Of a stretch of DNA of 64,000 nt, positions 11,710 through 26,224 are shown piece after piece (the first letter of the stretch is position 1; each line of letters begins with the position of its first letter). Origin of the DNA: Candidatus Bathyarchaeia archaeon (GTDB lineage: Archaea > Thermoproteota > Bathyarchaeia > Bathyarchaeales > Bathycorpusculaceae); assembly GCA_049969855.1 (NCBI GenBank), contig JBMFOB010000002.1, positions 38,456 to 102,455 on the forward strand, read 5' to 3'. Below the pieces are notes generated by a model, which was given only the letters and a program-made list of their open reading frames with translations, had not been told where the DNA came from and did no database searches. The translations under genes were made by a program, and so were the position numbers.

Positions 11710-12147
11710 GTGAAGAAAAAATATTCCTTGTTGTCTCTTGCCATAGTTGCCTTGTTTCTCACCATTAGCCTTTCAACAATACGTTCAGAAGAAACGCAGT
11801 GGCTTTGTTTTGCATGCGAAGACGGCGGCGTTGTTGACAAAGTACCATGTGAAGCTTTCACAGTGAAAATAGCTTTCAAAAACACTGGCAAATGTGAAGG
11901 CACATGGTCTATTAACATAGCCTTTGAAGGCGAAGCTTGGACTTGGAGTGGGACACCGCAAACATTAACTCTTAAACCGTGTAAAACAAAAACTTTGACA
12001 TGGAATGGAACTGTTCCATGTGACGCTCCAATAAATTCCGTAGCACGCTTAATAGTTTATTACAATGATTCTTTTGTGGCGCTGAACTGGTGGGTTCACA
12101 TAATTTCTGGAGCGGAACTGGCAATAACCTCAAGCACTGTGGAATAA
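11710..12147 (+). CDS. Secreted Ig-like beta-sandwich protein
   Basis: Signal peptide; FKNTG and LTLKP..TKTLTW CARDB/NEW3-like pattern. Confidence 0.65.
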   Translation: MKKKYSLLSLAIVALFLTISLSTIRSEETQWLCFACEDGGVVDKVPCEAFTVKIAFKNTGKCEGTWSINIAFEGEAWTWSGTPQTLTLKPCKTKTLTWNGTVPCDAPINSVARLIVYYNDSFVALNWWVHIISGAELAITSSTVE

Positions 12148-12273: not shown

Positions 12274-13761
12274 ATGGGCTGCGGAGTATTTGGAGCAATA
12301 AACTTCGAAGAACAGCCCATATTCCCATACATATACTGGGGCATGAGAGCCCAAAACCACAGGGGACACCAATCTCACGGATTCCTAACATTTGATAATG
12401 GAAAGTTCCACGTTCACAGAAGCCTAGACCTCATACCAAAAATAAAAACAAGCGCCATCCAAGAATGGTTTGGGCGTTTACCAGGGCGTGTGGGCATAGC
12501 AAATGTTAGATACACAACTTCTGGAAAATGCGACGAAAAATCGTTAATAAAGGGTACTCAACCTGTAACAGTCTCAAAAAACGGATTGGAATTGGCTGTT
12601 TCCTTTAATGGTAACGTTGTCAATGTATTCCAAGTTAAAGAGGAAATAAGCAAATATTTCCCGAAATTTTCCTATGAATGTGACGCCGACCTCATCTCCC
12701 ACAAACTCCTTATAGAATTATTAAAGAAAAAAGACATTGCATCAGCAGCAAAAACATGCATGAAAGAAATTGAAGGTGCCTTTTCAGTGGCTGGCATAAC
12801 AAAAAACGGCGAATTTTTCGCCTTCAAAGACCCAAATGGAATAAGACCATTGTGCGCTGGACACAGCGAAGACAAAACAACATACGCCTTCTCCTCAGAA
12901 ACCGTGGGTTTAGACATAAACGGCTTCAAAAAAGCCTTTGAAATTGAGCCAGGCGAACTCGTAACCATTTCAAAGGATGGATTTCAAAGAGAGAAATTAG
13001 TGAATGGAGGCTGCAAGGCTTTCTGCGCCTTTGAATTTGCATATTTCGCCAGACCAGACTCATGTTTTGACGACAGATATGTTTATGAAGTCAGAGAGGA
13101 GTTCGGAAGAAATCTTGTTAGAGAAAACCCAGAGATAGCCAAAAACGCAGACATAGTCATCTCCATTCCAGAAACAGGCGACGACGCAGCCTTTGGAGTT
13201 CATGAAGAATCTGGCTTAAAATGGGAAAGGGCTTCACGAAGGCATCGTTTCGTAACTGAGAGAGCCTTCATTTTGCTGAATAGGGAGCGTTATGCAACCA
13301 TAGACCGCAAAATTAACATTATAGCCTCAAAAGTTAATGGAAAACGTGTCATAGTCACAGAAGACAGCATCGTGCGCGGCGACACAACAAAAATTGTTAT
13401 AGAGAAACTCCGCAGAATGGGAGCAAAAAAGGTTTACCTTTTCGTAACTTTTCCACGCATAATTGGACCATGCTTCTATGGAATAGACATGGCAACATAC
13501 GGTCAACTAATAGGCTCTAAACATACGGCTGAAGAAATAGCAAAAATAATAGGTGCAGACGCAGTCTGCTACCAGTCCATAGATGGTTTCGTAAAAGCCA
13601 CGGGATTCCGCCGTGACCAACTTTGTTTAGCATGCGTAACTGGCAAATATCCAACACCACTGGCACAAAAAATAGCAGATGAGATGAAAAAGAAATTCCT
13701 TGAAGGCTACGAGGAAAAGGGAAGGCTTTACGAGATAGCTGAAGCCGTCCAAAAAGCCTAG
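12274..13761 (+). CDS. purF: Amidophosphoribosyltransferase
   Basis: CGVFG, NHRG, VRYTTSG, NGN, CAFEFAYFARPDS, EDSIVRGDT, CFYGID. Confidence 0.93.
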   Translation: MGCGVFGAINFEEQPIFPYIYWGMRAQNHRGHQSHGFLTFDNGKFHVHRSLDLIPKIKTSAIQEWFGRLPGRVGIANVRYTTSGKCDEKSLIKGTQPVTVSKNGLELAVSFNGNVVNVFQVKEEISKYFPKFSYECDADLISHKLLIELLKKKDIASAAKTCMKEIEGAFSVAGITKNGEFFAFKDPNGIRPLCAGHSEDKTTYAFSSETVGLDINGFKKAFEIEPGELVTISKDGFQREKLVNGGCKAFCAFEFAYFARPDSCFDDRYVYEVREEFGRNLVRENPEIAKNADIVISIPETGDDAAFGVHEESGLKWERASRRHRFVTERAFILLNRERYATIDRKINIIASKVNGKRVIVTEDSIVRGDTTKIVIEKLRRMGAKKVYLFVTFPRIIGPCFYGIDMATYGQLIGSKHTAEEIAKIIGADAVCYQSIDGFVKATGFRRDQLCLACVTGKYPTPLAQKIADEMKKKFLEGYEEKGRLYEIAEAVQKA

Positions 13762-13816
13762 CGCCAAAAATAAAATAGGCTTCAAACTTACTTCCATAAC
13801 TAAAGGGACGCATGAC

Positions 13817-15226
13817 ATGGAGAAAGTTGGCATACTCGTGGTTTCTTATGGCGCAAGAGAAGTAGCCATGATAGACGCTTTTACACGCAGCACAAAATAT
13901 GATGTGAAAGTTTATGTTGTTGATAAACAACGCAACCCCTTCAACGTCAAAAAAGCAGCAGAGCACGTTGTCGTGCCAGACTTAAATGTTGATGAAATAT
14001 GCAAGTTTGCAGAAAACAATAAGGATGAGATCGCCTTTGGCATAGTTGGACCAGAAAAACCAATAATTGAAGGCGTCCGCGACCTATTGGAAAAGCGGAC
14101 TGGCATACCCATCATTTGTCCAAAAAAGGAATATGCCATAGAAGCAAGCAAAGTGCAGCAGCGCTTATTATTCCAAAAAATAGTGCCAGAAGTGAATCCA
14201 CGCTTCAAAATTTTCAACCCAAAAGATTACAAAAGCCAAGAAGATGCGAAGAAGGCTGTTTACAAATGGCTGGATGAGCTTGGGGATATGGCTGTTGTTA
14301 AACCAGACCAGCCAGCAGCAGGAAAAGGCGTTGGCGTTTGGGGAGACCATTTTACAACCCGCGAGGAATTGTTTGAGCATTTTATGGCAAATTTCCAGCA
14401 TGGCTCAGTAATAATTGAAGAAAAAATCGATGGCGAAGAATCGAGTTTTCAAGCCTTCTGTGATGGCAAACACTTGGTGCCCTTACCAGAAACGAGGGAT
14501 TATAAGCGAGCCTTTGACGGTGACAAGGGTCCGAACACTGGTGGAATGGGTTCTTATAAGAATGTTGGCGATGTTTTGCCCTTTATGACTGATGCTGATA
14601 GGGCTAGGGAAGTTGAGATTGTTAAGCGAATCTTTGAAAAGTGGGAGGTTAAAGATAAAAGCGGCTTAAGGGGTATCCCGTTCTATGTGGCTTTCATGCA
14701 CACAAGCGAAGAACCAAAAATCCTTGAGAACAACAGCAGACCCGGAGACCCAGAAATAATCAACATATTGCCAATTTTAAAGGATGATTTTGTGGACATT
14801 TGCTTCAAAATTTTGGAAGGAAACCTAACAAAAATCGAATTAGAAAAAACTGCAACAGTCGTAACCTACAAGGTTCCACCAAACTACGGCGGATACATTG
14901 ATGCTTTTCCACAACTTGTGGACAAGAACGAAATTGGCACACCAGTCAACCTAACAGAAGCTTACGAACTAACAAAAAAGTATGGTGAAAAAATCAGCAT
15001 CTACCCAGCATCCATGGAACTCCGCAACAACGAAACCTACGCTCTCAAATCTAGAGCTGTTGGCGTTGTGGGCATAGGCGAAAACATAGAGGCTGCTAGA
15101 AGAGTTTCTTGGGAAGGCATAAAAGCCATTAAAGGCGGAGCATTGTGGCATAGGAAAGACATAGCCTCAAAAAGGCATATAACAAAAAGCATTAAGCATA
15201 TGAAGCGTTTGAGGCTTAAAAAGTGA
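13817..15226 (+). CDS. purD: Phosphoribosylamine-glycine ligase (archaeal type)
   Basis: GPEKP, EASK, KP...AAGKGV, IEEK..GEE, DYKRAFDGDKGPNTGGMGS, NSRPGDPE. Confidence 0.88.
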   Translation: MEKVGILVVSYGAREVAMIDAFTRSTKYDVKVYVVDKQRNPFNVKKAAEHVVVPDLNVDEICKFAENNKDEIAFGIVGPEKPIIEGVRDLLEKRTGIPIICPKKEYAIEASKVQQRLLFQKIVPEVNPRFKIFNPKDYKSQEDAKKAVYKWLDELGDMAVVKPDQPAAGKGVGVWGDHFTTREELFEHFMANFQHGSVIIEEKIDGEESSFQAFCDGKHLVPLPETRDYKRAFDGDKGPNTGGMGSYKNVGDVLPFMTDADRAREVEIVKRIFEKWEVKDKSGLRGIPFYVAFMHTSEEPKILENNSRPGDPEIINILPILKDDFVDICFKILEGNLTKIELEKTATVVTYKVPPNYGGYIDAFPQLVDKNEIGTPVNLTEAYELTKKYGEKISIYPASMELRNNETYALKSRAVGVVGIGENIEAARRVSWEGIKAIKGGALWHRKDIASKRHITKSIKHMKRLRLKK

Positions 15227-16305
15227 AAAGAGTTTTCATATCAGACTGTGAAGGACCAATCTCAAAAAATGATAATGCCTTTGAAATAACATCCCATTAC
15301 GTTCCACACGGCGACAAACTTTTCACGGTAATAAGTAAATATGACGATGTTTTGGCAGAAGTCCTAAAAAGACCAAATTATAAGGCTGGAGACACTTTAA
15401 AACTTATACTGCCTTTCTTGAAGGCTTATGATGTTACAGACGCCAAAATGCGGGAATTTTCTGCCAAAAGCCTACTTTTAATTGCTAATGTTAAGGATAT
15501 GCTGTCACATGTGAGAAATGCAGCCCACGCTTTTATCGTTAGCACAAGCTATCAGCATTACATAGAGGCTTTATGTCAAGCCTTGAATTTTCCATACGAG
15601 AACACCTACTGCACAAGGCTATGCCTTGACAAATACCCCATAACCGAGAAAGAAAGAAGTGAACTGAAAGAATTGGCGAGAGAAATTGCAGAAATGCCCC
15701 TAATTAAAATCCCACCAAACGCAAAAACCATGAGCGACTTTTCCAAAAAAGACCAAGAGTTAATTGATCGGCTGGACGAAATTTTCTGGAATACCATAAC
15801 AAAAATGGACATTGGCAAAATTTTCTCCGAAGTTAATCCAGTTGGAGGAAGCGAGAAAGCCGAAGCCGTGAAAGATGCAGCTAAAAAGGTTGGTGTTGAG
15901 CTAAGCGATGTGATGTATGTGGGCGACAGCATAACAGATGTAGAAGCATTTAGGCTTGTGAAACAAAATGGCGGCTTAGCCGTCTCCTTCAATGGTAACG
16001 AGTATGCCGTAAGAAATGCTGAAATTGCCATACTATCCGAAAATAGCATAGCCACTGCGATAATTGCAGAATTATTTAGCAAATTTGGGAAACAAGAAAC
16101 CCTAAAGATTGTTGAAAATTGGAGTCATGAAACACTAAAGAAAAGCTCCATAAACCAGACATTACTTAACAACCTTTCCGGTTTGTATCCTAAAAAATTG
16201 CCCAAAGTTAAAATAATAACAAAAGAGAATATGAAGACTCTGGCAAAAGAAAGTAGCAAATTCAGAAAAAGGGTTAGAGGCGAAGCCATAGGAAGGCTGG
16301 GATAA
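15223..16305 (+). CDS. HAD-superfamily hydrolase, EhaR-like
   Basis: DCEGP motif I, STS motif II, K motif III, GDSITD motif IV; GTGA overlap with purD. Confidence 0.82.
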
Positions 16306-16306
16306 A

Positions 16307-17218
16307 ATGGTAAAGAAGGCTGAAGTTGAAGACGCTTATGCAGAGGCCTTTGAAGGAATATTCACCAGAATAATAGTTACCGCTGATGGTGAAGAAACAC
16401 TACGAAAAGCAGCAGAAGACGCAACAGCAACACCATCCATAGTCATTGGCAGAGTTGAAGGAGGAATAGAAAAATGGCTAAGCAAAAAAGAAACCCCAGA
16501 CAAACGCCAAGGCGCTTTGCTCCAGTTTTGGGGTGGAATAGACCCAAAAAAGCCCTTTTCAGACTCTGTTAAAAAATTTGAGGTTGAGCTTTCCTACAGA
16601 ATCCGCCAAGACATTCTCGTTAAACCTTTTACGGCAGTTTTTGACGCAACGCAAAAGGCTGAAGGGAAAATTGACATGATGGAGCGTGTAGGACATTGCG
16701 GAGATGGTTATGAGTGGGTTGAAAAACGTTTTGGACGCGAAGTTATTGTCGTTCCCATAATGGTTCCGGACTTCATTATCGAACGCTATTTAGGCTATGC
16801 CCATGGAGTTATGGGTGCGAATTTTTGGGTTATGTGCAAAACAAAAGAAGCCTTGAAAAAGGCTGGAGAAAAAGCCTTAGAAGCAATTCACAAAATTGAT
16901 GGTGTAATAACGCCTTTTGATGTTTGTTCTGCGGGTTCTAAGCCTGAAACAAGTTTTCCATGGATTGGACCGACAACAAACCATCCATACTGTCCGTCCC
17001 TAAAAAAGAAGTTAGGCAAAGAATCTAAAGTTCCCGAAGGCGTCAACTACATTCCAGAAATCGTAATCAATGGGGTTTCACTGGAAGCTGTGAAAAAGGC
17101 TATGCGGGCTGGCATAGACGCAGCATTAGGCGTTGAGGGTGTTGTGAAGGTTTCTGCTGGAAATTATGGTGGAAAACTTGGCAATTATAAGATTTATTTG
17201 CGTGAGCTGTTTTCATGA
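16307..17218 (+). CDS. Formylmethanofuran:H4MPT formyltransferase-like protein (EhaS/Ftr-II type)
   Basis: [45 protein letters not shown]; divergent [12 protein letters not shown] instead of canonical RIGQCVMT.PT. Confidence 0.88.
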
Positions 17219-18129
17219 ACACTTTTGACGTTATAGGATTCGGCGCCTTAAACGTCGACAAACTTTTCAAAGTGAATAAAATAGCTGGGGCTGAAGAAGA
17301 AGGCTTCATTATGAACTGTGAAGAATGGTGTGGGGGCTCAGCGGCAAACACTATCGTCGGCTTGGCAAAGCTAGGTTGCAAAGTTGGTTTTATAGGAAAA
17401 ATAGCCAAGGATAGGGAAGGAAAAATGCTCATTGAAGATTTTCGTAAGGAAGGCGTTGACACAAACGGCATAGTCTACGCAAAAGGTGGCAGAAGCGGAA
17501 CAGTCATGGGTTTCGTGGATGAAAAGGGCGAAAGAGCCTTATATGTGGACCCAGGCGTGAACGATACGATAGAGTTTAACGAAATAAGCAAGGATTACGC
17601 TTTTAGCACGCAATTTTTGCATTTAAGCTCCTTTGTTGGAGAAAAGTCCTTCCAAACCCAAAAAAGGCTTGTTGAAATATTGCCCGAAAATGTTAAGGTA
17701 AGCCTTGACCCTGGAGAATTATACGCCAGAAAAGGACTAGCCGCGTTAGAGCCCATGATAAAGCGCACTTTTGTTTTGATGCCAAATCAAAGAGAACTCC
17801 AACTTCTAACCAAAGCGAAAGATTACAAAAAAGGCGCTGAGGTTCTGCTTGAAAATGGCGTTAAAATAGTTGCTGTAAAACTTGGCAATAAAGGCTGTTA
17901 TGTTACGGATGGAAAGGAAAACCACCAGATAAACCGCTTTAACGTAAAAGTTGTTGACACCACGGGTGCTGGTGATGCCTTCTGTGCAGGCTTCCTATAC
18001 GGCTTAATTAATGGTAAAAGTTTGTACGAATGCGGAAGGCTGGGTAATTTTGTAGCTTCAAGGTGCATAATGAAAATGGGTGCCAGAACAGGACTTCCAC
18101 ACATTGAAGATTTAAAGCTTCTTCGTTAA
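17215..18129 (+). CDS. PfkB/ribokinase-family kinase, EhaT-like
   Basis: [18 protein letters not shown]; ATGA overlap with the ftr-like gene. Confidence 0.9.
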
Positions 18130-18930
18130 GTATTCAATTAAACTTTCAAAGATTAGTTTTCCATCGCCATATTGGGGCATTTGCTTTTGTCTTGTCCAGT
18201 CTGGCTGTTGCCACCAATAAAATGCTCTTTCTGGATGCGGCATCAAACCAAAAATTGTCCCTTCTGGATTGCATATTCCAGCTATGTCATGGAAAGAGCC
18301 ATTTGGGTTTGTTGGAAAACATCCATTAGCATATTCGCCACTTTTATCACAATAGCGGAAGACTAGTTGGTCATTGTCGTAAAGTCTTTCCAGAAACGGT
18401 TTTTCCTTTTCCTTTGCAAACATGAATCTGCCTTCTGAATGGGCAACGGGAATCCGCAAAACTTTTCCCTGAGGAATCTTCCAAGTAAATGCACATTTTC
18501 CCTTGTTTTCATGCCTAATGTAAATCCATCGACAATTATATCCAGGCGGAAAATTAGGCGCCAAAACCGCTTCAGGATAGGGACTTATTCCATCAAATCC
18601 CGGAAGAAAACCAGCCTCAACAAGCACTTGAAAGCCATTACAAATGCCAAGGATTAAGCGATTTTCATTAACGAAAACTTTAAGCTCCTTGCCCAACTTT
18701 GCCATAATCCACTTCGCCCATATGGCGCCAGCCCGCACATAATCCCCATAAGAGAAGCCTCCTGGAAAAACCAGAACATGATATTCCAAAAGGTTTCCGC
18801 GCTTAACCAATTCACTTGCATGCAAAATTTCAGTTTGAACACTCAACTCCTCAAAAGCCCGTTTTGTTTCTGCGTCGCAGTTTGTTCCGCCAACCCTTAA
18901 AACGCAGACTTTAATCTCTTCCCGTTTCAT
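18112..18930 (-). CDS. purQ: FGAM synthase glutaminase subunit
   Basis: GTNCD, PGGFSYGD, GICNGFQ, MPHPER. Confidence 0.96.
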   Translation of the reverse strand: MKREEIKVCVLRVGGTNCDAETKRAFEELSVQTEILHASELVKRGNLLEYHVLVFPGGFSYGDYVRAGAIWAKWIMAKLGKELKVFVNENRLILGICNGFQVLVEAGFLPGFDGISPYPEAVLAPNFPPGYNCRWIYIRHENKGKCAFTWKIPQGKVLRIPVAHSEGRFMFAKEKEKPFLERLYDNDQLVFRYCDKSGEYANGCFPTNPNGSFHDIAGICNPEGTIFGLMPHPERAFYWWQQPDWTRQKQMPQYGDGKLIFESLIEYLTKKL

Positions 18931-18932
18931 GC

Positions 18933-21314
18933 TTAAACCCCGCTGCTTAGGGTTCTTTTCCAACTTGCCAACAAATCCTTCAACGAAGCATCCACAACAA
19001 CTTCATCGGCTAATCCGTAAACGCATAACCTTGGAGCCTTTGCGACTTTACCTATTTCAGCATACGCAACACCTTTAAACAGTGCCTCAAACTCTTTTTT
19101 CGCCTTTTGTGAAACTTCCACCAAAAAGCGACTGTTAGACTCCGAAAACAAAACGAAATCATTACGATTCACATTTTCTCTTGGAACCTTTCGCAATTGC
19201 AATTCCATTCCATATCCGCCAGCAAAAGCCATCTCCGCAGCCGCCACGCCTAAACCGCCTTCAGATAAATCGTGGCAAGCCTTAACCAATCCTAAATCAA
19301 CAGCCTTAGTAATTGCCCTAAAAGTTTTCATGGCTTGTTTTGCCCGCACTTTCGGCACAGAGTTTCCAACAAAACCCTTAAGCCTATAATATTCTGAACC
19401 GCCCAGCTCGTTATAGGTTTGTCCAACAATGTAGATTAAGTCGTCAACATCTTTAACATCTATGGACACAACCAAACGAACATCTGGAACTATGCCCAAA
19501 GCAGTAATTAAAAGCGTAGGCGTAACCGTTCCAAGCGGAGATTCATTGTAAAGGCTGTCCTTTCCAGAAATAAATGGTGTTTTAAAGGCTGTTGCAAAAT
19601 CATAACATGCTTCACAAGCCCTAACAAGACTGCCAAGGATTTCGGGCTTTTCCGGGTTGCCCCAAGTGAAATTATCAAGTAAGGCTATTCTTCTTCCGCC
19701 AACAGCCACATTATTTCTTATAGCTTCATCTATTGCTGAGGCAGCCATCCAATAAACATCAATTTTTCCGTAATTTGGATTCATCCCACATGAAATGGCT
19801 AAGCCTTTCCACGAATCCATCAATGGTTTAAGCACAGCCGCATCATTAGGTCCAGCAAACTCACCATGCAACGGCTTGAGCAAAGTGTTCCCTTTAACCT
19901 CATGGTCGTAAGTGCGTATCACACTTTCTTTGCTTGCAATATTGGGCGAAGATAAAAGTTGCATAAACGTTTCAGTTAAGTTTTCTGGTTCTTGAAAGGA
20001 TGGCTCCTCAAAAATTTTCGGCTTATAATGGGCGGTTCTTATAACTTTGGGCGGTTCAAAGAGAAATGGAATCTCTATTTCCGCAACCTTTTCGCTTTGA
20101 AAATAAACCCTTAAAACCTTATCCTCTGTATATTTTCCAATAGCATTAGCCTCCACATCCTCACTCCTGAAAACTTCTAAGACTTCTTCCAAATTTTCAG
20201 GAGAAACAGCCAAAAGCATCCGCTCTTGCGATTCAGAAACATAAATTTCCCAAGGCGCCAAACCAGAATACTTCAAAGGAACCTTATCCAACTCAACAAC
20301 AGCGCCACAACCAAAACGCTTTGCTGTTTCGCCAATAGCAGATGATAAGCCGCCTCCGCCTAAGTCCGTTATTGCCGATGCAATCTCCAAATCTCGAATC
20401 TTAATTATCGCCCTCTTCAGCTTCTCCTCCTCAATCGGATTTGCAATTTGAACCGCTGGTCTCGAAACCTCTTCTGACTTTTCAGTCAACACAGCAGATG
20501 CAAAAGTTACGCCGTGAATGCCATCCCGACCGGTTCTTCCTCCAGCCAAAACTATAATATCATCTGGTTTGGCGTTTCTCCTAAACTTTTTCAATGGAAG
20601 CAATCCGACGCATCCACAGTAGACAACCACATTCCCAACATAGCTTTCATCAAAGTATATGGCTCCATTAACCGTTGGAATGCCCATGTTATTGCCATAA
20701 CTCCCTATACCCGCAACCACCCCCATGTAAACATATTTCGGATGCTTAACCCCAGACGGAAGCTTTTCAAATTCAAAATTTAATGGACCAAAACCCAAAA
20801 CATCCATGCACGCTATCGGGTCAGCCCAAACCCCCAAAACATCACGAATCACCCCACCAACCCCAGTGGCTGCACCACCAAAAGGCTCCACAGCAGAAGG
20901 ATGGTTATGAGTTTCAACTTTAACTGCAACTCCATAACCCTTATCAAAACGGATTATGCCAGCATTATCCTCAAAAATTGAAAAACACCATCTTGGCTTA
21001 ACCTCATTGGTTGCCTTTGCAATATACGTTCTAAAAAGGCTATCAATATCTTTCCCATCAAACTTTACCTTACCCTTAAAGGTTTTGTGAAAACAATGCT
21101 CAGACCACGTTTGTCCAATTGTTTGAAGTTCCACATCTGTTGGATTTCGCCCTTTCCGCCTAAAATATTCTTTAATACTCTTCATTTCCTGCAAATTTAA
21201 TCCTATGCCAAGTTCAAGGCTTAATTCTAAAAGTTGTTGTTCAGAAGCTTCAAGAATGTTAACTTCAAAAAGTGGAAAAGGAGTTTTTCTGCGAATGTAA
21301 AGGCTTTCAGTCAT
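18933..21314 (-). CDS. purL: FGAM synthase subunit II
   Basis: WSEHC, ETHNHPS, DLGGGG, SESQERM, HDLSEGG. Confidence 0.97.
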   Translation of the reverse strand: MTESLYIRRKTPFPLFEVNILEASEQQLLELSLELGIGLNLQEMKSIKEYFRRKGRNPTDVELQTIGQTWSEHCFHKTFKGKVKFDGKDIDSLFRTYIAKATNEVKPRWCFSIFEDNAGIIRFDKGYGVAVKVETHNHPSAVEPFGGAATGVGGVIRDVLGVWADPIACMDVLGFGPLNFEFEKLPSGVKHPKYVYMGVVAGIGSYGNNMGIPTVNGAIYFDESYVGNVVVYCGCVGLLPLKKFRRNAKPDDIIVLAGGRTGRDGIHGVTFASAVLTEKSEEVSRPAVQIANPIEEEKLKRAIIKIRDLEIASAITDLGGGGLSSAIGETAKRFGCGAVVELDKVPLKYSGLAPWEIYVSESQERMLLAVSPENLEEVLEVFRSEDVEANAIGKYTEDKVLRVYFQSEKVAEIEIPFLFEPPKVIRTAHYKPKIFEEPSFQEPENLTETFMQLLSSPNIASKESVIRTYDHEVKGNTLLKPLHGEFAGPNDAAVLKPLMDSWKGLAISCGMNPNYGKIDVYWMAASAIDEAIRNNVAVGGRRIALLDNFTWGNPEKPEILGSLVRACEACYDFATAFKTPFISGKDSLYNESPLGTVTPTLLITALGIVPDVRLVVSIDVKDVDDLIYIVGQTYNELGGSEYYRLKGFVGNSVPKVRAKQAMKTFRAITKAVDLGLVKACHDLSEGGLGVAAAEMAFAGGYGMELQLRKVPRENVNRNDFVLFSESNSRFLVEVSQKAKKEFEALFKGVAYAEIGKVAKAPRLCVYGLADEVVVDASLKDLLASWKRTLSSGV

Positions 21315-21562
21315 CTTTCTTCCTCAACCGTAATCACATAATCATCCTTTGTTGGATTTGCCAAAAGTCTCCTACACATTTCATCCGCCTTCACATTGGC
21401 TTCTTCCTTGGATTCTGCTTCAAGAACTACGCTGTAAACTTTACTAACATTCGCAGCATCAACTCCATAGCCAAGCTCTCTAAGTAAACGCGCTGTGGTC
21501 TCACCCTCAGGGTCGCTGTGTCCAGGCTTTAACCTAACTTCAATTTTTAAACGGTATTTCAT
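21311..21562 (-). CDS. purS: FGAM synthase subunit PurS
   Basis: LKPGHSDPEG...LLANP. Confidence 0.95.
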   Translation of the reverse strand: MKYRLKIEVRLKPGHSDPEGETTARLLRELGYGVDAANVSKVYSVVLEAESKEEANVKADEMCRRLLANPTKDDYVITVEEER

Positions 21563-21616
21563 AGGCTAAGTTTGAGTTTTAAAAGATTTAAACACTTTTA
21601 TCAGCAAAAACTAAAA

Positions 21617-22699
21617 TCATTTCAAAACGATCTTCCTATCCCTATAAAGAATCCTGATTCCTCTGGAATCCGTTACAAAGCCTATCGGTTCAACTTGTAC
21701 ACCATTTTTCTCCAAGACATCTATTGCCTTGTCCTCATCCTCTTTGTCAACCACCACCGCAAAACCCCATCCCATGTTAAACGTCTTAAACATCTCCTCA
21801 TCCGTTATTTTTCCACCCAATTCCGAAGCGGTTTTCTGAATTAACTCAAAAATCGGCTGCGGTTTGAAATTGTCAAACTTGAAACCTATACCCTTCGAAA
21901 ACTCCGTCAACCTATCAAATTTTAAATATGCATCGCCAGTAATGTGCACCGCAGCCCTAACCCTAACCTCTTCAGCAACCCTAAGCAATGGCGTAACATA
22001 TATCCTAGTAGGTTCCAAAACTTCGTAAACAACTTCCCTATTCAATCCCTCTGGAACATCGTAAGGCTCATATTTTCCACCCCAACGCTTAAAAAGAACT
22101 TTCCTCGCCAAAGAAACACCATTACTGTGAATTCCAGAACTTCTCAATCCAACAACAACATCGCCAGCCTTTATGTCTCTTCCATAAATTATTTTCTCAC
22201 CAGAAACCACCCCAATAGCTGCCACAACCAAGTCAAACCCTTTACCCTCCACCAAACCCTTCACTACCTCGGCAACATCACCAATCTCCCCACTAGGCAC
22301 AACGCATCCAGCCTCAACAGCCCCTTTGGCTATTCCCTTCAACAATTCCCTAATTAAGCTCGGATCAGAAACTTGAGCGTGAATGTTATCTGCAACCGCC
22401 AAAGGCTTAGCTCCAGACCTAATAACGTCATTAACAGCCATAGCAACGCCATCAACACCTATCGTATTGTATTTTCCAGCCAACTGCGCAACAAGAACCT
22501 TAGTGCCCACACCCTCAATAACCAAATCCAAAAAACGCCCATTCTCCAAGGGAAAAATGTTTCCATAAGGAAGCTTAACAACTCTACCATAACAACTAAA
22601 CTTATAAGTTTCCATTAAAATCCGCAAAGCCCCCTTAGATTGGCTTCTAAGTCTTCTGTTAACGCCAGCTTGAGCATACGTGATTTTTTTAACCATCAT
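21617..22699 (-). CDS. purM: Phosphoribosylformylglycinamidine cyclo-ligase
   Basis: YAQAGV, EGVGTK, AMAVND, SSGIHSNG, HITG, TFNMG; start trimmed to the MM after GGAGGAG. Confidence 0.93.
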   Translation of the reverse strand: MMVKKITYAQAGVNRRLRSQSKGALRILMETYKFSCYGRVVKLPYGNIFPLENGRFLDLVIEGVGTKVLVAQLAGKYNTIGVDGVAMAVNDVIRSGAKPLAVADNIHAQVSDPSLIRELLKGIAKGAVEAGCVVPSGEIGDVAEVVKGLVEGKGFDLVVAAIGVVSGEKIIYGRDIKAGDVVVGLRSSGIHSNGVSLARKVLFKRWGGKYEPYDVPEGLNREVVYEVLEPTRIYVTPLLRVAEEVRVRAAVHITGDAYLKFDRLTEFSKGIGFKFDNFKPQPIFELIQKTASELGGKITDEEMFKTFNMGWGFAVVVDKEDEDKAIDVLEKNGVQVEPIGFVTDSRGIRILYRDRKIVLK

Positions 22700-22857
22700 T
22701 TTTGGTGCTCCTCCATTAATTAATAAATGACCAATTAACATACGATGGCTTAGAAAATAACGTTTTTGGGACAGTTCACCATGAATTACAAACTTATTGA
22801 ACATGGTAAGAAAAATTTTTATTCTAATTAAACAATAATTGGTTTTGAAGGAGAAGT

Positions 22858-23151
22858 ATGCTGAACTTAATATATTCTTCATATTCTCTTCTAAATGCTT
22901 TCAAATACAGAGATAGAATGACTATAATTGGAGATATCTTAAAGAGTATTAAAGAGTCCAGAAATGGAAGGAAACTGTCTCAAATAATGCAGAGTGCAAA
23001 CCTAAACTACATTCAGACAAAAAAGTATTTGAATTATCTCCTTAACTGCGGTTTCCTTGTAGTTACTGAAAAGGAAACGTACACTATAACAAGTAATGGT
23101 TTAAAGTTTTTGCAGTTTGTCGAAATACAAAGAATACACATGATACGCTAA
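22858..23151 (+). CDS. Small archaeal winged-HTH regulator
   Basis: RDRMTIIGDIL...IMQSANLNY...YL..L...Y.IT..G.KFL. Confidence 0.8.
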   Translation: MLNLIYSSYSLLNAFKYRDRMTIIGDILKSIKESRNGRKLSQIMQSANLNYIQTKKYLNYLLNCGFLVVTEKETYTITSNGLKFLQFVEIQRIHMIR

Positions 23152-25774: not shown

Positions 25775-26224
25775 TTATTCCATTAGTGTAACCATTCTTT
25801 CCGCAGTTTCCTTGTCTATGTAGAAGCCTCCTCTTGCTAACCTTTTAACGCCTAAAAGCAAACGAACATTGTTTAGCGGTATGGGTTTGGCAGCCACTTG
25901 CAAGTTTTTAAATCGGATGAAGGAAACTAATGGTTTATCTTTGACAAATTGAAAGTATTGTTCTGCAGAGCTTAAAACAGATTCATTGCCATGTTCCCTC
26001 CACAACTCCTCGGCTTTTCCAACTTTTCTTTCGATGAACTCTGCGTAACCGCCTATCTCGCCGACTGGTTTTGAAACGTAAAAGATAAGTAATGAAGCAT
26101 TTGTGGGTGGTGCTCGCGGTCCACCGACATAGGAGTGCACTTGTTTTCCTTCGCTGCTGCGACTGCAGAATTTGCGCCACCACTTTTCCTTAATCATTAT
26201 GACGAAAGCGTATTTTTCCTTCAT
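25775..26224 (-). CDS. PUA-like (DUF365/EVE/ASCH) domain protein
   Basis: LIFYVSKPVGEIGGYAEF...ELW pattern. Confidence 0.65.
   Translation of the reverse strand: MKEKYAFVIMIKEKWWRKFCSRSSEGKQVHSYVGGPRAPPTNASLLIFYVSKPVGEIGGYAEFIERKVGKAEELWREHGNESVLSSAEQYFQFVKDKPLVSFIRFKNLQVAAKPIPLNNVRLLLGVKRLARGGFYIDKETAERMVTLME

Follow-up and report, generated by a model that had tools for sequence, protein, structure and literature searches.

A formyltransferase paralogue in a purine gene cluster

The window, a 64,000-nucleotide stretch of a Candidatus Bathyarchaeia genome, contains two facing runs of purine biosynthesis genes, with ORFs assigned to families by Pfam and NCBIfam profiles. The forward run starts with purF (12274–13761), encoding the amidophosphoribosyltransferase of step 1, which scores 317 bits against TIGR01134 over residues 3–460, short of the cut-off of 350, and also matches GATase_7 (PF13537). 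Next is purD (13817–15226), encoding the GAR synthetase of step 2, with GARS_N, GARS_A and GARS_C domains and a TIGR00877 score of 275 bits, under the cut-off of 288. Three further forward-strand genes encode an EhaR-type HAD-superfamily protein of 360 amino acids (15223–16305), a proposed phosphatase; Ftr2 (16307–17218), a 303-amino-acid Ftr paralogue with PF01913 and PF02741 domains, proposed to be a GAR or glycinamide-riboside formyltransferase; and a ribokinase-like kinase of the PfkB family (17215–18129, 304 amino acids, PF00294), the proposed kinase of the module. On the reverse strand lie purM, encoding the AIR synthetase of step 5 (21617–22882; TIGR00878, 254 bits), and three genes of step 4: purS (21311–21562; TIGR00302, 74 bits), purL for FGAM synthase II (18933–21314; TIGR01736, 695 bits) and purQ for the glutaminase subunit of FGAM synthase (18112–18963; NF002252, 304 bits), all above their cut-offs.

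The forward genes are coupled. Read in the sequence, the purD stop and HAD start overlap as GTGA at 15223–15226, the HAD stop (TAA) is separated from the Ftr2 ATG by a single base at 16303–16309, and the Ftr2 stop and PfkB start overlap as ATGA at 17215–17218; from the coordinates, the PfkB gene and purQ converge with an 18 bp overlap. The ORFs and junctions are those of the original prediction, which described a coupled purF–purD–HAD–Ftr-like–PfkB run facing purM–purS–purL–purQ.

Ftr2 matches NF002554 at 350 bits, above cut-off, and scores 234 bits against the equivalog TIGR03119, under the cut-off of 292.6; in a tree it is placed outside the Ftr1 clade, with an SH-aLRT of 99–100 on the separating branch. 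The HAD protein matches only generic HAD profiles in Pfam and NCBIfam, and its homologues carry the JGI name 'energy-converting hydrogenase A subunit R' (EhaR). Across six divergent family members, D-x-E-G-P, STSY, K212 and GDSITD do not vary, and the sole solved sequence relative of the window protein is 1Y8A (AF1437; E 9e-31, residues 4–290). The PfkB protein scores 186 bits against PF00294 and 170 bits against the ribokinase profile TIGR02152 (cut-off 300), staying under every NCBIfam equivalog cut-off. Residues D15, GGS..N and DTTGAGD are conserved in eight members, and the best solved relatives are the adenosine kinase 3UBO, YdjH and ribokinases.

A gap at step 3 across the assembly

The host assembly (1.28 Mb, 49 contigs, 93% complete) encodes purF, purD, purLQS, purM, purE, purC, purB and a PurP-like ligase, the last a divergent protein that scores 141 bits where the cut-offs are near 560. 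The whole assembly gave no match to PF00551 (PurN) or TIGR01142 (PurT), so that the step-3 gap extends to the assembly and is not just a feature of the window. It does encode a separate canonical Ftr, on contig C17, with 389 bits against TIGR03119, over the cut-off of 292.6. Both results bear out the original prediction.

In the cited part of Brown (2011, PMC3261824), GAR formyltransferase is described as missing from Archaeoglobi, Methanobacteriales-type methanogens and Methanopyrus. The pertinent part of Chadwick (2022, PMC9012536) places an Ftr2 paralogue in those same groups and in ANME-1, and describes ANME-1 as without PurN and PurT.

Ftr2 and PurN/PurT nearly exclude each other

We compared the distribution of Ftr2 with that of PurN and PurT in two sets of genomes, 151 in each and mostly MAGs, calling absence at E thresholds of 1e-5 for PF00551 and 1e-30 for PurT. 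Of 151 Bathyarchaeia, 120 are purD-positive, and these carry Ftr2 only (51), PF00551 only (47) or a PurT-like protein only (12); exactly one step-3 candidate is thus found in 110 of the 120, two in 2 and none in 8. One family (f11) includes all three solutions and another (f21) two. In the second sample, taken from the phylum of genome G155 and without a purD filter, the counts are 57 with Ftr2 only, 61 with PF00551 only, 13 with PurT only, 4 with PF00551 and PurT, 6 with Ftr2 and PF00551 and 10 with none, PurN and/or PurT without Ftr2 occurring in 78. Related genomes are not independent, and Fisher p-values for this exclusion therefore overstate the case. Co-occurrence is found in 2 of 53 Ftr2-positive, purD-positive Bathyarchaeia (both matches weak), in 6 of the 63 second-phylum genomes that have Ftr2 (PF00551 in each), and in 5 of 25 Ftr2 genomes of other lineages, among them three of four Loki-type genomes, which encode a full-length PurN. 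Some Halobacteriota-side genomes also have both systems. Ftr2 is thus not invariably a replacement.

The position of the genes follows the same pattern. Depending on lineage, the slot just 3′ of purD in Bathyarchaeia is occupied by purN, purT or HAD–Ftr2–PfkB: by coordinates, 17 genomes have a PF00551 gene there and 4 have a PurT-like gene, one of these passing the PurT equivalog NF006766. Of the 56 Ftr2-positive genomes, 50 have Ftr2 no more than about 3.5 kb from purD. The shared slot, together with the near-exclusive distribution, implies that Ftr2 serves the same pathway step as PurN and PurT. Among 68 Ftr2-type loci, the HAD–Ftr2–PfkB trio is contiguous in 43, purD is directly upstream in 39 and at least one pur gene is nearby in 45, compared with no pur gene beside any of 12 Ftr1-type loci. 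Linkage to pur genes is also found independently in the Asgard archaeon Borrarchaeum, which retains purF–purD–HAD–Ftr2–PfkB–purL–purQ–purM at 28–43% identity to the window proteins. Counting against replacement, the contiguous trio is missing from 25 of the 68 loci and the fetched flank has no pur gene in 23; at ANME-1-like loci, Ftr2 instead neighbours FBPase, PFK and aldolase genes.

A probable third route to FGAR

On balance, we favour the view that the HAD–Ftr2–PfkB module supplies the conversion of GAR to FGAR performed elsewhere by PurN or PurT, possibly acting at the riboside level. The gap in the assembly, the exclusion profile and the pur linkage all support the trio as a third route to FGAR, as originally predicted; a literature search found no paper linking the trio to GAR formylation. 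The module would probably fill, across many archaea, the GAR-formyltransferase gap that has stood open since 2011. We propose the following activities. Ftr2, a predicted catalytically intact paralogue of formylmethanofuran:H4MPT formyltransferase, would pass formyl to the glycinamide amine, with N5-formyl-H4MPT or formyl-methanofuran as the donor, and the formylated product would then enter PurLQS, encoded on the opposite strand. This non-canonical reaction would have two obligate partners, the HAD protein of EhaR type and the PfkB protein. The likeliest role that we can name for them is a shunt in which the HAD protein would strip the 5′-phosphate of GAR, the formyltransferase would act on the riboside and the PfkB protein would put the phosphate back, using ATP; the order of the genes is that of the proposed reactions. 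In the cited part of Brown (2011, PMC3261824), N10-formyl-H4MPT is not thought to be a formyl donor, which speaks against the proposal.

The distribution of the companions bears on this shunt. The EhaR-type HAD occurs in all 56 Ftr2-positive Bathyarchaeia compared with 6 of 95 Ftr2-negative ones, and in 22 of the 25 genomes from other lineages that carry Ftr2. Of ten Ftr2-negative genomes picked from the second phylum, one has the HAD, next to purT. In at least two of the six HAD-positive, Ftr2-negative Bathyarchaeia (G034 and G028), HAD and PfkB genes stand beside a PurN-like gene in the order purF–purD–[PurN-like]–HAD–PfkB–FolD, and the PurN-like protein keeps N-x-H-P and D-(E)-G-P, with SGRDAA or TGRDRD replacing the canonical SGRGSN loop. 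This pairing with an enzyme without the SGRGSN loop lends only indirect support to the sequence of dephosphorylation, formylation and rephosphorylation, which the original prediction gave as a possibility. In genome G031 the trio is paired with a canonical-type PurD, so a co-adapted PurD is not needed.

Alternatively, Ftr2 alone could formylate GAR itself while the HAD and PfkB proteins do a separate purine-linked job (salvage, damage control of dephosphorylated intermediates or ribose phosphate supply), which is why they would travel with pur genes. Such a division of labour would fit pur operons with HAD and PfkB genes that have no adjacent formyltransferase, as in G157 (purS–purQ–purL–purF–HAD–PfkB–purE) and four Loki-type genomes (purD–HEAT–HAD), and the many lineages in which Ftr2, HAD and PfkB are unlinked; speculatively, the clade-specific Arg100 of Ftr2 could bind a phosphate. 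General salvage, however, would not predict the absence of the HAD from PF00551-only, purD-positive Bathyarchaeia (0 of 42, five HAD-positive ones set aside) and from PurT-only ones (0 of 12), nor would it predict partnership with a PurN-like enzyme whose SGRGSN loop is altered, and we regard this alternative as rather unlikely.

That Ftr2 is instead an isoenzyme of H4MPT-dependent C1 metabolism seems quite improbable. It might, for example, move formyl to methanofuran so that formate is freed for formate-dependent purine ligases, as with FhcD, while a different enzyme, perhaps a bifunctional PurP-like ligase, carries out step 3. Ftr2 retains the core that is conserved throughout the family, E251 included; FhcD (6S6Y) is among its solved relatives, at 107 bits; the divergent PurP-like protein of the host could have altered specificity; and the Ftr2 gene of some ANME-1-like loci is surrounded by genes of central carbon metabolism. 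A formate supplier would nevertheless be expected to accompany PurT, yet PurT-like proteins occur in 0 of 63 Ftr2 genomes of the second phylum, 0 of 25 elsewhere and 1 of 56 in Bathyarchaeia (a weak match). No amidohydrolase family was matched among the scanned neighbours in the window, and alternation of the Ftr2 module with purN and purT after purD also argues against this role. A place for the trio in the Eha hydrogenase, or in methanofuran or methanopterin synthesis or repair, with its pur position incidental, is highly improbable: Methanothermobacter homologues are cotranscribed with ehaA–R and treated as Eha subunits in the cited part of Kaster et al. (2011, PMC3087415), an assignment that KEGG and JGI names follow, but pur neighbours in the host and at most other Ftr2 loci, the lack of a hydrogenase gene among the scanned window neighbours, the exclusion of PurN/PurT, and the finding that 22 of 31 purD-negative Bathyarchaeia (G014 among them) have neither Ftr2 nor HAD, are all unexpected for it and agree with the prediction that the trio is not hydrogenase-related.

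Comparison with known systems

The predicted parallel with EhaR, EhaS and EhaT holds only in part. EhaS and EhaT of Methanothermobacter are annotated as Ftr and ribokinase in the cited part of Kaster et al. (2011, PMC3087415), and with the JGI name for the HAD the protein types match those of the trio, as judged by annotation and name. The setting differs: the Methanothermobacter genes accompany a membrane hydrogenase, whereas here and in most loci they lie in pur clusters. The HAD protein shares its D-x-E-G-P start motif with AF1437 (1Y8A) from Archaeoglobus fulgidus, which structural genomics lists as a 'hypothetical protein' and for which a literature search found no functional paper. With the adenosine kinase 3UBO and ribokinases, the window PfkB protein shares its fold, Asp15 for ribose binding and the DTTGAGD motif for catalysis; it has GGS where the ribokinase motif is GGK.

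Ftr2 has the same two-lobe fold (PF01913 and PF02741) as the solved, characterised Ftr enzymes (1FTR, 2FHJ, 1M5H and 1M5S), against which it scores only 176–183 bits. E251, in the conserved core, aligns with the Glu of the Ftr EIVING motif, which we take to be the catalytic residue. Ftr2 differs in a 9-residue insert and in the clade-specific residues C131 (Phe in 25 of 25 Ftr1 proteins), R100 (mostly Gly in Ftr1), P222 and W75. The canonical Ftr of the host falls inside the Ftr1 clade, across the Ftr1 branch from Ftr2, and the Ftr2 gene sits in a pur operon, unlike canonical Ftr with its C1-pathway genes. FhcD is an earlier example of an Ftr-family paralogue put to use outside methanogenic C1 reduction. 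In the Fhc formyltransferase/hydrolase complex, FhcD and an amidohydrolase release formate; no such partner was matched among the scanned neighbours in the window, and the distribution of Ftr2 excludes PurT, unlike what FhcD-like formate release would lead one to expect.

With the folate-dependent PurN and the formate- and ATP-dependent PurT, Ftr2 has in common the operon slot after purD. Their folds are unrelated to that of Ftr2, the proposed donor of Ftr2 is formyl bound to H4MPT or methanofuran, and in the sampled Bathyarchaeia Ftr2, unlike PurN and PurT, never occurs without HAD and PfkB partners.

The purine cluster and its HAD–Ftr2–PfkB trio

The purine cluster consists of nine ORFs, read in the window and assigned with Pfam and NCBIfam models, which form two converging gene sets. 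On the forward strand, purF (12274–13761) and purD (13817–15226) are followed by genes for a HAD-superfamily protein of 360 residues (15223–16305), an Ftr-family protein of 303 residues (16307–17218), hereafter called Ftr2 together with its relatives, and a PfkB kinase of 304 residues (17215–18129). On the reverse strand, purM, purS, purL and purQ, in this order, run from 22882 down to 18112. The tight coupling originally read for the trio is confirmed, with a GTGA overlap between purD and HAD, a 1-base gap between HAD and Ftr2, and an ATGA overlap between Ftr2 and PfkB. In the window, Ftr2 thus shares a cluster with purD and purL and takes the place expected for step 3, the conversion of GAR to FGAR. 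Besides pur genes, the scanned neighbours on both sides are of housekeeping type and encode Alba, a class II (aspartyl/lysyl-type) tRNA synthetase, wHTH proteins and EF-2; no hydrogenase gene of an Eha-type context is found among them. Two ORFs with no Pfam match at E ≤ 1e-4 flank the cluster, at 11710–12147 (forward strand, 145 residues) and 25775–26224 (reverse strand, 149 residues). A scan with a sigma-70 promoter and terminator model, which is unsuited to archaea, found sites no commoner than in shuffled sequences.

Homologues at 83–98% identity are labelled Bathyarchaeia or Bathycorpusculaceae. The lack of purN and purT, first noticed in the window, holds across the whole assembly (1.28 Mb, 49 contigs, 93% complete), where neither PF00551, the PurN family, nor the formate/ATP-dependent ligase PurT has any match at E ≤ 0.001. 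With the adjoining steps encoded, step 3 is therefore left without a recognised enzyme. The HAD, Ftr2 and PfkB proteins themselves match neither family. Genes for purE, purC and purB are found in the genome, which has no match to PurH1 or PurH (PF01808) or to PurO (PF07826), so that its IMP cyclohydrolase is also without a recognised gene. The sole PurP-like ligase, a 477-residue protein on contig C17, is divergent (141 bits, against cut-offs near 560).

Ftr2 is a paralogue of canonical Ftr

Ftr2 matches both FTR lobes, PF01913 and PF02741, with 149.8 and 196.4 bits; it passes the subfamily model NF002554 (349.8 bits, cut-off 297) and fails the equivalog TIGR03119 (233.6 bits, cut-off 292.6). 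The original prediction turned on a separate canonical Ftr, and one is present: of the two Ftr genes in the genome, the copy on contig C17, hereafter Ftr1 together with its type, passes TIGR03119 with 388.7 bits. A tree of 53 full-length cluster representatives places the window protein in an 11-row group, and a branch with an SH-aLRT of 99 splits off 35 rows that hold the C17 copy. A second tree adds 78 proteins from named loci, solved Ftr sequences being absent from both trees. It groups the genome’s Ftr1 with Planctomycetota FhcD-like proteins and Archaeoglobaceae Ftr1 in a clade of 25 rows (support 100), and the pur-linked proteins of Bathyarchaeia and Borrarchaeum in a group of 45 (support 93), with the Loki-type proteins as the most distant Ftr2-like group. 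By these sequence comparisons, Ftr2 falls outside the canonical Ftr grouping, across a branch with an SH-aLRT of 99–100. Ftr2 retains the family-wide conserved core, E251 included, and has its own signature, formed by C131 (F in 25 of 25 Ftr1 sequences), R100, P222 and W75. Solved Ftr sequences match Ftr2 with 176–183 bits, and Ftr2 carries a 9-residue insert that they lack.

The canonical Ftr gene (L001, G000:C17:22157–25579) is preceded by an ORF of 321 residues with weak matches of NAD(P)-binding type (npdG, 38 bits), and the ORF on its 3′ side resembles a release-factor gene by eye. Several Ftr2 matches contain a single in-frame stop, TAG in genomes G159, G173 and G245, TGA in G172 and G218, and TAA in G185, G293 and G301, affecting two of the four Loki-type copies; these stops could stem from match overhang, from errors in sequencing or from gene decay. 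Two Ftr2 loci on contigs labelled Nitrososphaerota and Nitrosotalea (L038 and L055) nest in the tree among Bathyarchaeia and ANME-1-like sequences, and their labels or binning look doubtful.

Ftr2 loci are linked to purine genes

One species-genome scan, mostly of Bathyarchaeia, provides 80 loci, 68 of Ftr2 type and 12 of Ftr1 type by tree. Among the Ftr2-type loci, HAD–Ftr2–PfkB is contiguous in 43, purD lies directly upstream in 39 and purF–purD in 33. The purine linkage of the trio recurs well beyond the window, as at least one pur gene is present in 45 of the 68, an Asgard locus included, against none of the 12 Ftr1-type loci. The strongest single case of synteny is this Asgard locus, from Candidatus Borrarchaeum yapensis (L071), where purC and purE face purF–purD–HAD–Ftr2–PfkB–purL–purQ–purM and the proteins are only 28–43% identical to those of the window. 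Contrary loci also occur: the contiguous trio is missing in 25 of the 68, and 23 have no pur gene in the flank that was fetched. The loci lacking the trio or pur genes are ANME-1/Methanophagales-like, Alkanophaga, Archaeoglobaceae, Hydrothermarchaeota and Loki-type, and in the ANME-1-like ones FBPase, PFK and aldolase genes adjoin Ftr2. In a one-contig genome (L122, G081:C1:1521000–1535000), a HAD match covering profile positions 113–370 lies in an open frame of 604 residues, followed by Ftr2 and PfkB; no purD is found in that genome at E ≤ 1e-40, and the locus could represent either a gene fusion or a cluster in decay.

Ftr2, PurN and PurT alternate after purD

Five profile searches were run on the same set of 151 evenly drawn Bathyarchaeia genomes. 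Scores of the Ftr2 profile are bimodal, above 340 bits for Ftr2 and 230–275 bits for Ftr1, and 56 genomes are positive for Ftr2, 54 for PF00551, 13 for a PurT-like protein and 120 for purD. The purD-positive genomes have Ftr2 only (51), PF00551 only (47), PurT-like only (12) or none of the three (8), and in the last two Ftr2 accompanies either a weak PurT-like match (175 bits) or a 79-bit PF00551 match on a small separate contig. Exactly one system is present in 110 of the 120, in keeping with the predicted anti-correlation of Ftr2 with purN and purT, in a sample made up mostly of MAGs, where absences hinge on E thresholds. All three systems are missing from 22 of the 31 genomes without purD; one purD-negative genome of the window’s order (G014, 98% complete) keeps only Ftr1. 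The systems have switched in more than one event: family f11 has Ftr2 in two genomes, PurT-like in eight and PF00551 in one, and family f21 has Ftr2 in three and PF00551 in two.

The alternation extends to gene position. Adjacency counts, read by eye from coordinate tables, place PF00551 just downstream of purD in 17 genomes of this sample and a PurT-like gene there in 4, and in 50 of the 56 Ftr2-positive genomes no more than about 3.5 kb separates Ftr2 from purD. Fetched loci have the orders purF–purD–purN–FolD (G099, G111) and purF–purD–purT (G016, G006), and the PurT of G016 passes the equivalog NF006766. The slot after purD shows a pattern of non-orthologous displacement in place.

PurD itself falls short of the TIGR00877 cut-off in most genomes of Ftr2/HAD type, with 222–275 bits, and reaches 300–505 bits in those of PurN/PurT type. 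The idea that a divergent PurD has become co-adapted to the trio is rejected on the strength of G031, which pairs a canonical-type PurD with HAD–Ftr2–PfkB. Within family f11, the PurD type switches along with the formyltransferase type, which suggests whole-operon transfer. G031 departs from the usual pairing of PurD type and formyltransferase type, and G087 carries a purD of each type.

A second sample of 151 genomes, unfiltered for purD, covers the phylum to which the Alkanophaga genome G155 belongs. Here Ftr2 occurs alone in 57 genomes, PF00551 alone in 61, PurT alone in 13 and none in 10, with double occurrences of PF00551 and PurT in 4 and of Ftr2 and PF00551 in 6; PurN and/or PurT without Ftr2 thus amounts to 78. 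Fisher values for this phylum are only descriptive because related genomes are not independent. In 25 further genomes with Ftr2, taken from outside the main group of Bathyarchaeia, a PurT-like match is never seen and PF00551 is found in five, three of the four Loki-type genomes among them, so the exclusion is strong, not absolute. Full-length PurN is present in three of these four Loki-type genomes (G170–G173).

HAD and PfkB accompany non-canonical formyltransferases

The HAD protein has the motifs D-x-E-G-P, STSY, Lys212 and GDSITD, invariant in six members down to 30% identity. Its motif I is D-x-E-G-P, not DxD, in all six and in AF1437 (1Y8A), the only solved sequence relative, and the nucleophile Asp8 is invariant; DxE also occurs in active enolase-phosphatase. 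PfkB (PF00294, 186 bits) retains the ribose-binding Asp and the catalytic DTTGAGD, and its closest solved proteins are adenosine kinase and ribokinases. It falls below every equivalog cut-off and, with 170 bits against 300 for TIGR02152, is not a ribokinase equivalog. A complex prediction for Ftr2 and PfkB with HAD as partner, run without controls, scored 0.00 and is evidence neither way.

A HAD profile finds the protein in 56 of 56 Ftr2-positive Bathyarchaeia against 6 of 95 Ftr2-negative ones, and in 22 of the 25 other Ftr2 genomes. Five of the six Ftr2-negative genomes with HAD have a weak partial PF00551 match just after purD. Of three among these five whose loci were fetched, two (G034, locus L097 on contig C8; G028, locus L098 on contig C17) encode purF–purD–[PurN-like, 281–330 residues]–HAD–PfkB–FolD, a fourth type of module. 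Only profile positions of about 60–160 are matched by this PurN-like protein, which keeps N-x-H-P and D-(E)-G-P and whose sequence at the canonical SGRGSN loop is SGRDAA or TGRDRD; in PurN, this loop presumably holds the GAR phosphate. The same kind of partial match follows purD in G002, G010 and G140, with HAD about 12 kb from purD in G010; in the sixth genome, G062, HAD immediately follows purD, close to the end of a contig.

HAD and PfkB also occur in pur operons away from Ftr2, for example in the order purS–purQ–purL–purF–HAD–PfkB–purE in a Promethearchaeota genome, and the order purD, 160-residue HEAT-repeat protein, HAD is kept in the four Loki-type genomes (L114, L115, L117, L118), whose Ftr2-like gene lies elsewhere, adjoining a gene for a 307-residue protein with no Pfam match. 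Among ten Ftr2-negative genomes picked by hand from the second phylum, HAD occurs in one, where it and a PurT-like gene (344 bits) are convergent neighbours (G229:C7:3726–6893), so HAD is now seen beside all three kinds of formyltransferase. Clusters of HAD look-alikes include mostly bacterial (Thermodesulfobacteriota) or Thermoplasmatota ones, so the family may not be confined to archaea that use H4MPT.

A candidate route from GAR to FGAR

On these comparative data, the Ftr2-centred module probably performs the conversion of GAR to FGAR. Ftr catalyses formyl transfer between N5 of H4MPT and a primary aminomethyl group, and Ftr2 would act on the amine of glycinamide instead of on methanofuran. 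The reaction would lie near equilibrium and be pulled by the ATP-dependent PurLQS.

The role of the companions is less certain. On the simpler alternative, Ftr2 acts on GAR itself, and HAD and PfkB have another purine-linked job. A more elaborate possibility, which we consider rather unlikely as a general statement, is that step 3 in a large part of the archaea is a three-enzyme, ATP-spending shunt at the riboside level. The EhaR-type HAD would dephosphorylate GAR; glycinamide riboside would then be formylated by a formyltransferase without affinity for the 5′-phosphate; and PfkB would phosphorylate the formylated riboside to FGAR. The formyltransferase would be either Ftr2, with formyl bound to H4MPT or methanofuran, or a folate-using PurN-like enzyme without the phosphate loop. 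Judged from sequence and gene order, this riboside shunt is a tentative proposal, yet the best available account of HAD and PfkB, because the pair goes with two non-canonical formyltransferases that are unrelated to each other, but with neither PurN nor PurT of canonical type, and because the gene order HAD–Ftr2–PfkB is that of dephosphorylation, formylation and rephosphorylation.

Relation to known systems

In the available sections of Brown et al. 2011 (PMC3261824), purN and purT are reported as not found in Archaeoglobi, in four methanogens listed with M. thermautotrophicus, and in Methanopyrus; a new GAR formyltransferase is concluded to exist in purine-prototrophic archaea without PurN and PurT, and N10-formyl-H4MPT is not regarded as a donor. 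The corresponding sections of Chadwick et al. 2022 (PMC9012536) restate the missing GAR formyltransferase for ANME-1, Archaeoglobales and Methanobacteriales and state that ANME-1, ANME-2a/b, Archaeoglobales, Methanopyrus and Methanothermobacter possess a divergent Ftr2; the absence of PurN and PurT from ANME-1 is treated in a separate section, and in these parts of the paper no connection to Ftr2 is made. Our literature search found no paper tying Ftr2/EhaS or HAD to GAR formylation. Ftr2 is a specific, testable candidate for the missing GAR formyltransferase, and its distribution and gene context speak for it in two phyla and in Asgard archaea as well. If correct, this assignment would establish a third, non-homologous route to FGAR, and the annotations ‘Ftr’ and ‘EhaR/ribokinase’ would need correcting in hundreds of genomes. 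Metabolic models of Methanothermobacter-type methanogens would not need free formate for purine C8, and the origin of C8 from C2 of acetate in Methanosphaera, as reported in the available text of PMC3261824, could be explained without folate.

The co-occurrence of Ftr2 and PF00551 in 5 of the 25 genomes resembles the ANME-2a/2b case in the relevant part of Chadwick et al. 2022 (PMC9012536). In Methanothermobacter, the trio is paralleled by EhaR, EhaS and EhaT, the eha-operon names for the HAD, Ftr and ribokinase homologues, a likeness drawn from one paper and the JGI names; the section of Kaster et al. 2011 (PMC3087415) concerned interprets the homologues of Ftr and ribokinase as subunits of Eha. 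Under the riboside shunt, EhaR, EhaS and EhaT would instead be purine enzymes, not hydrogenase subunits, and purine C8 would be directly linked to the C1 pool of methanogenesis.
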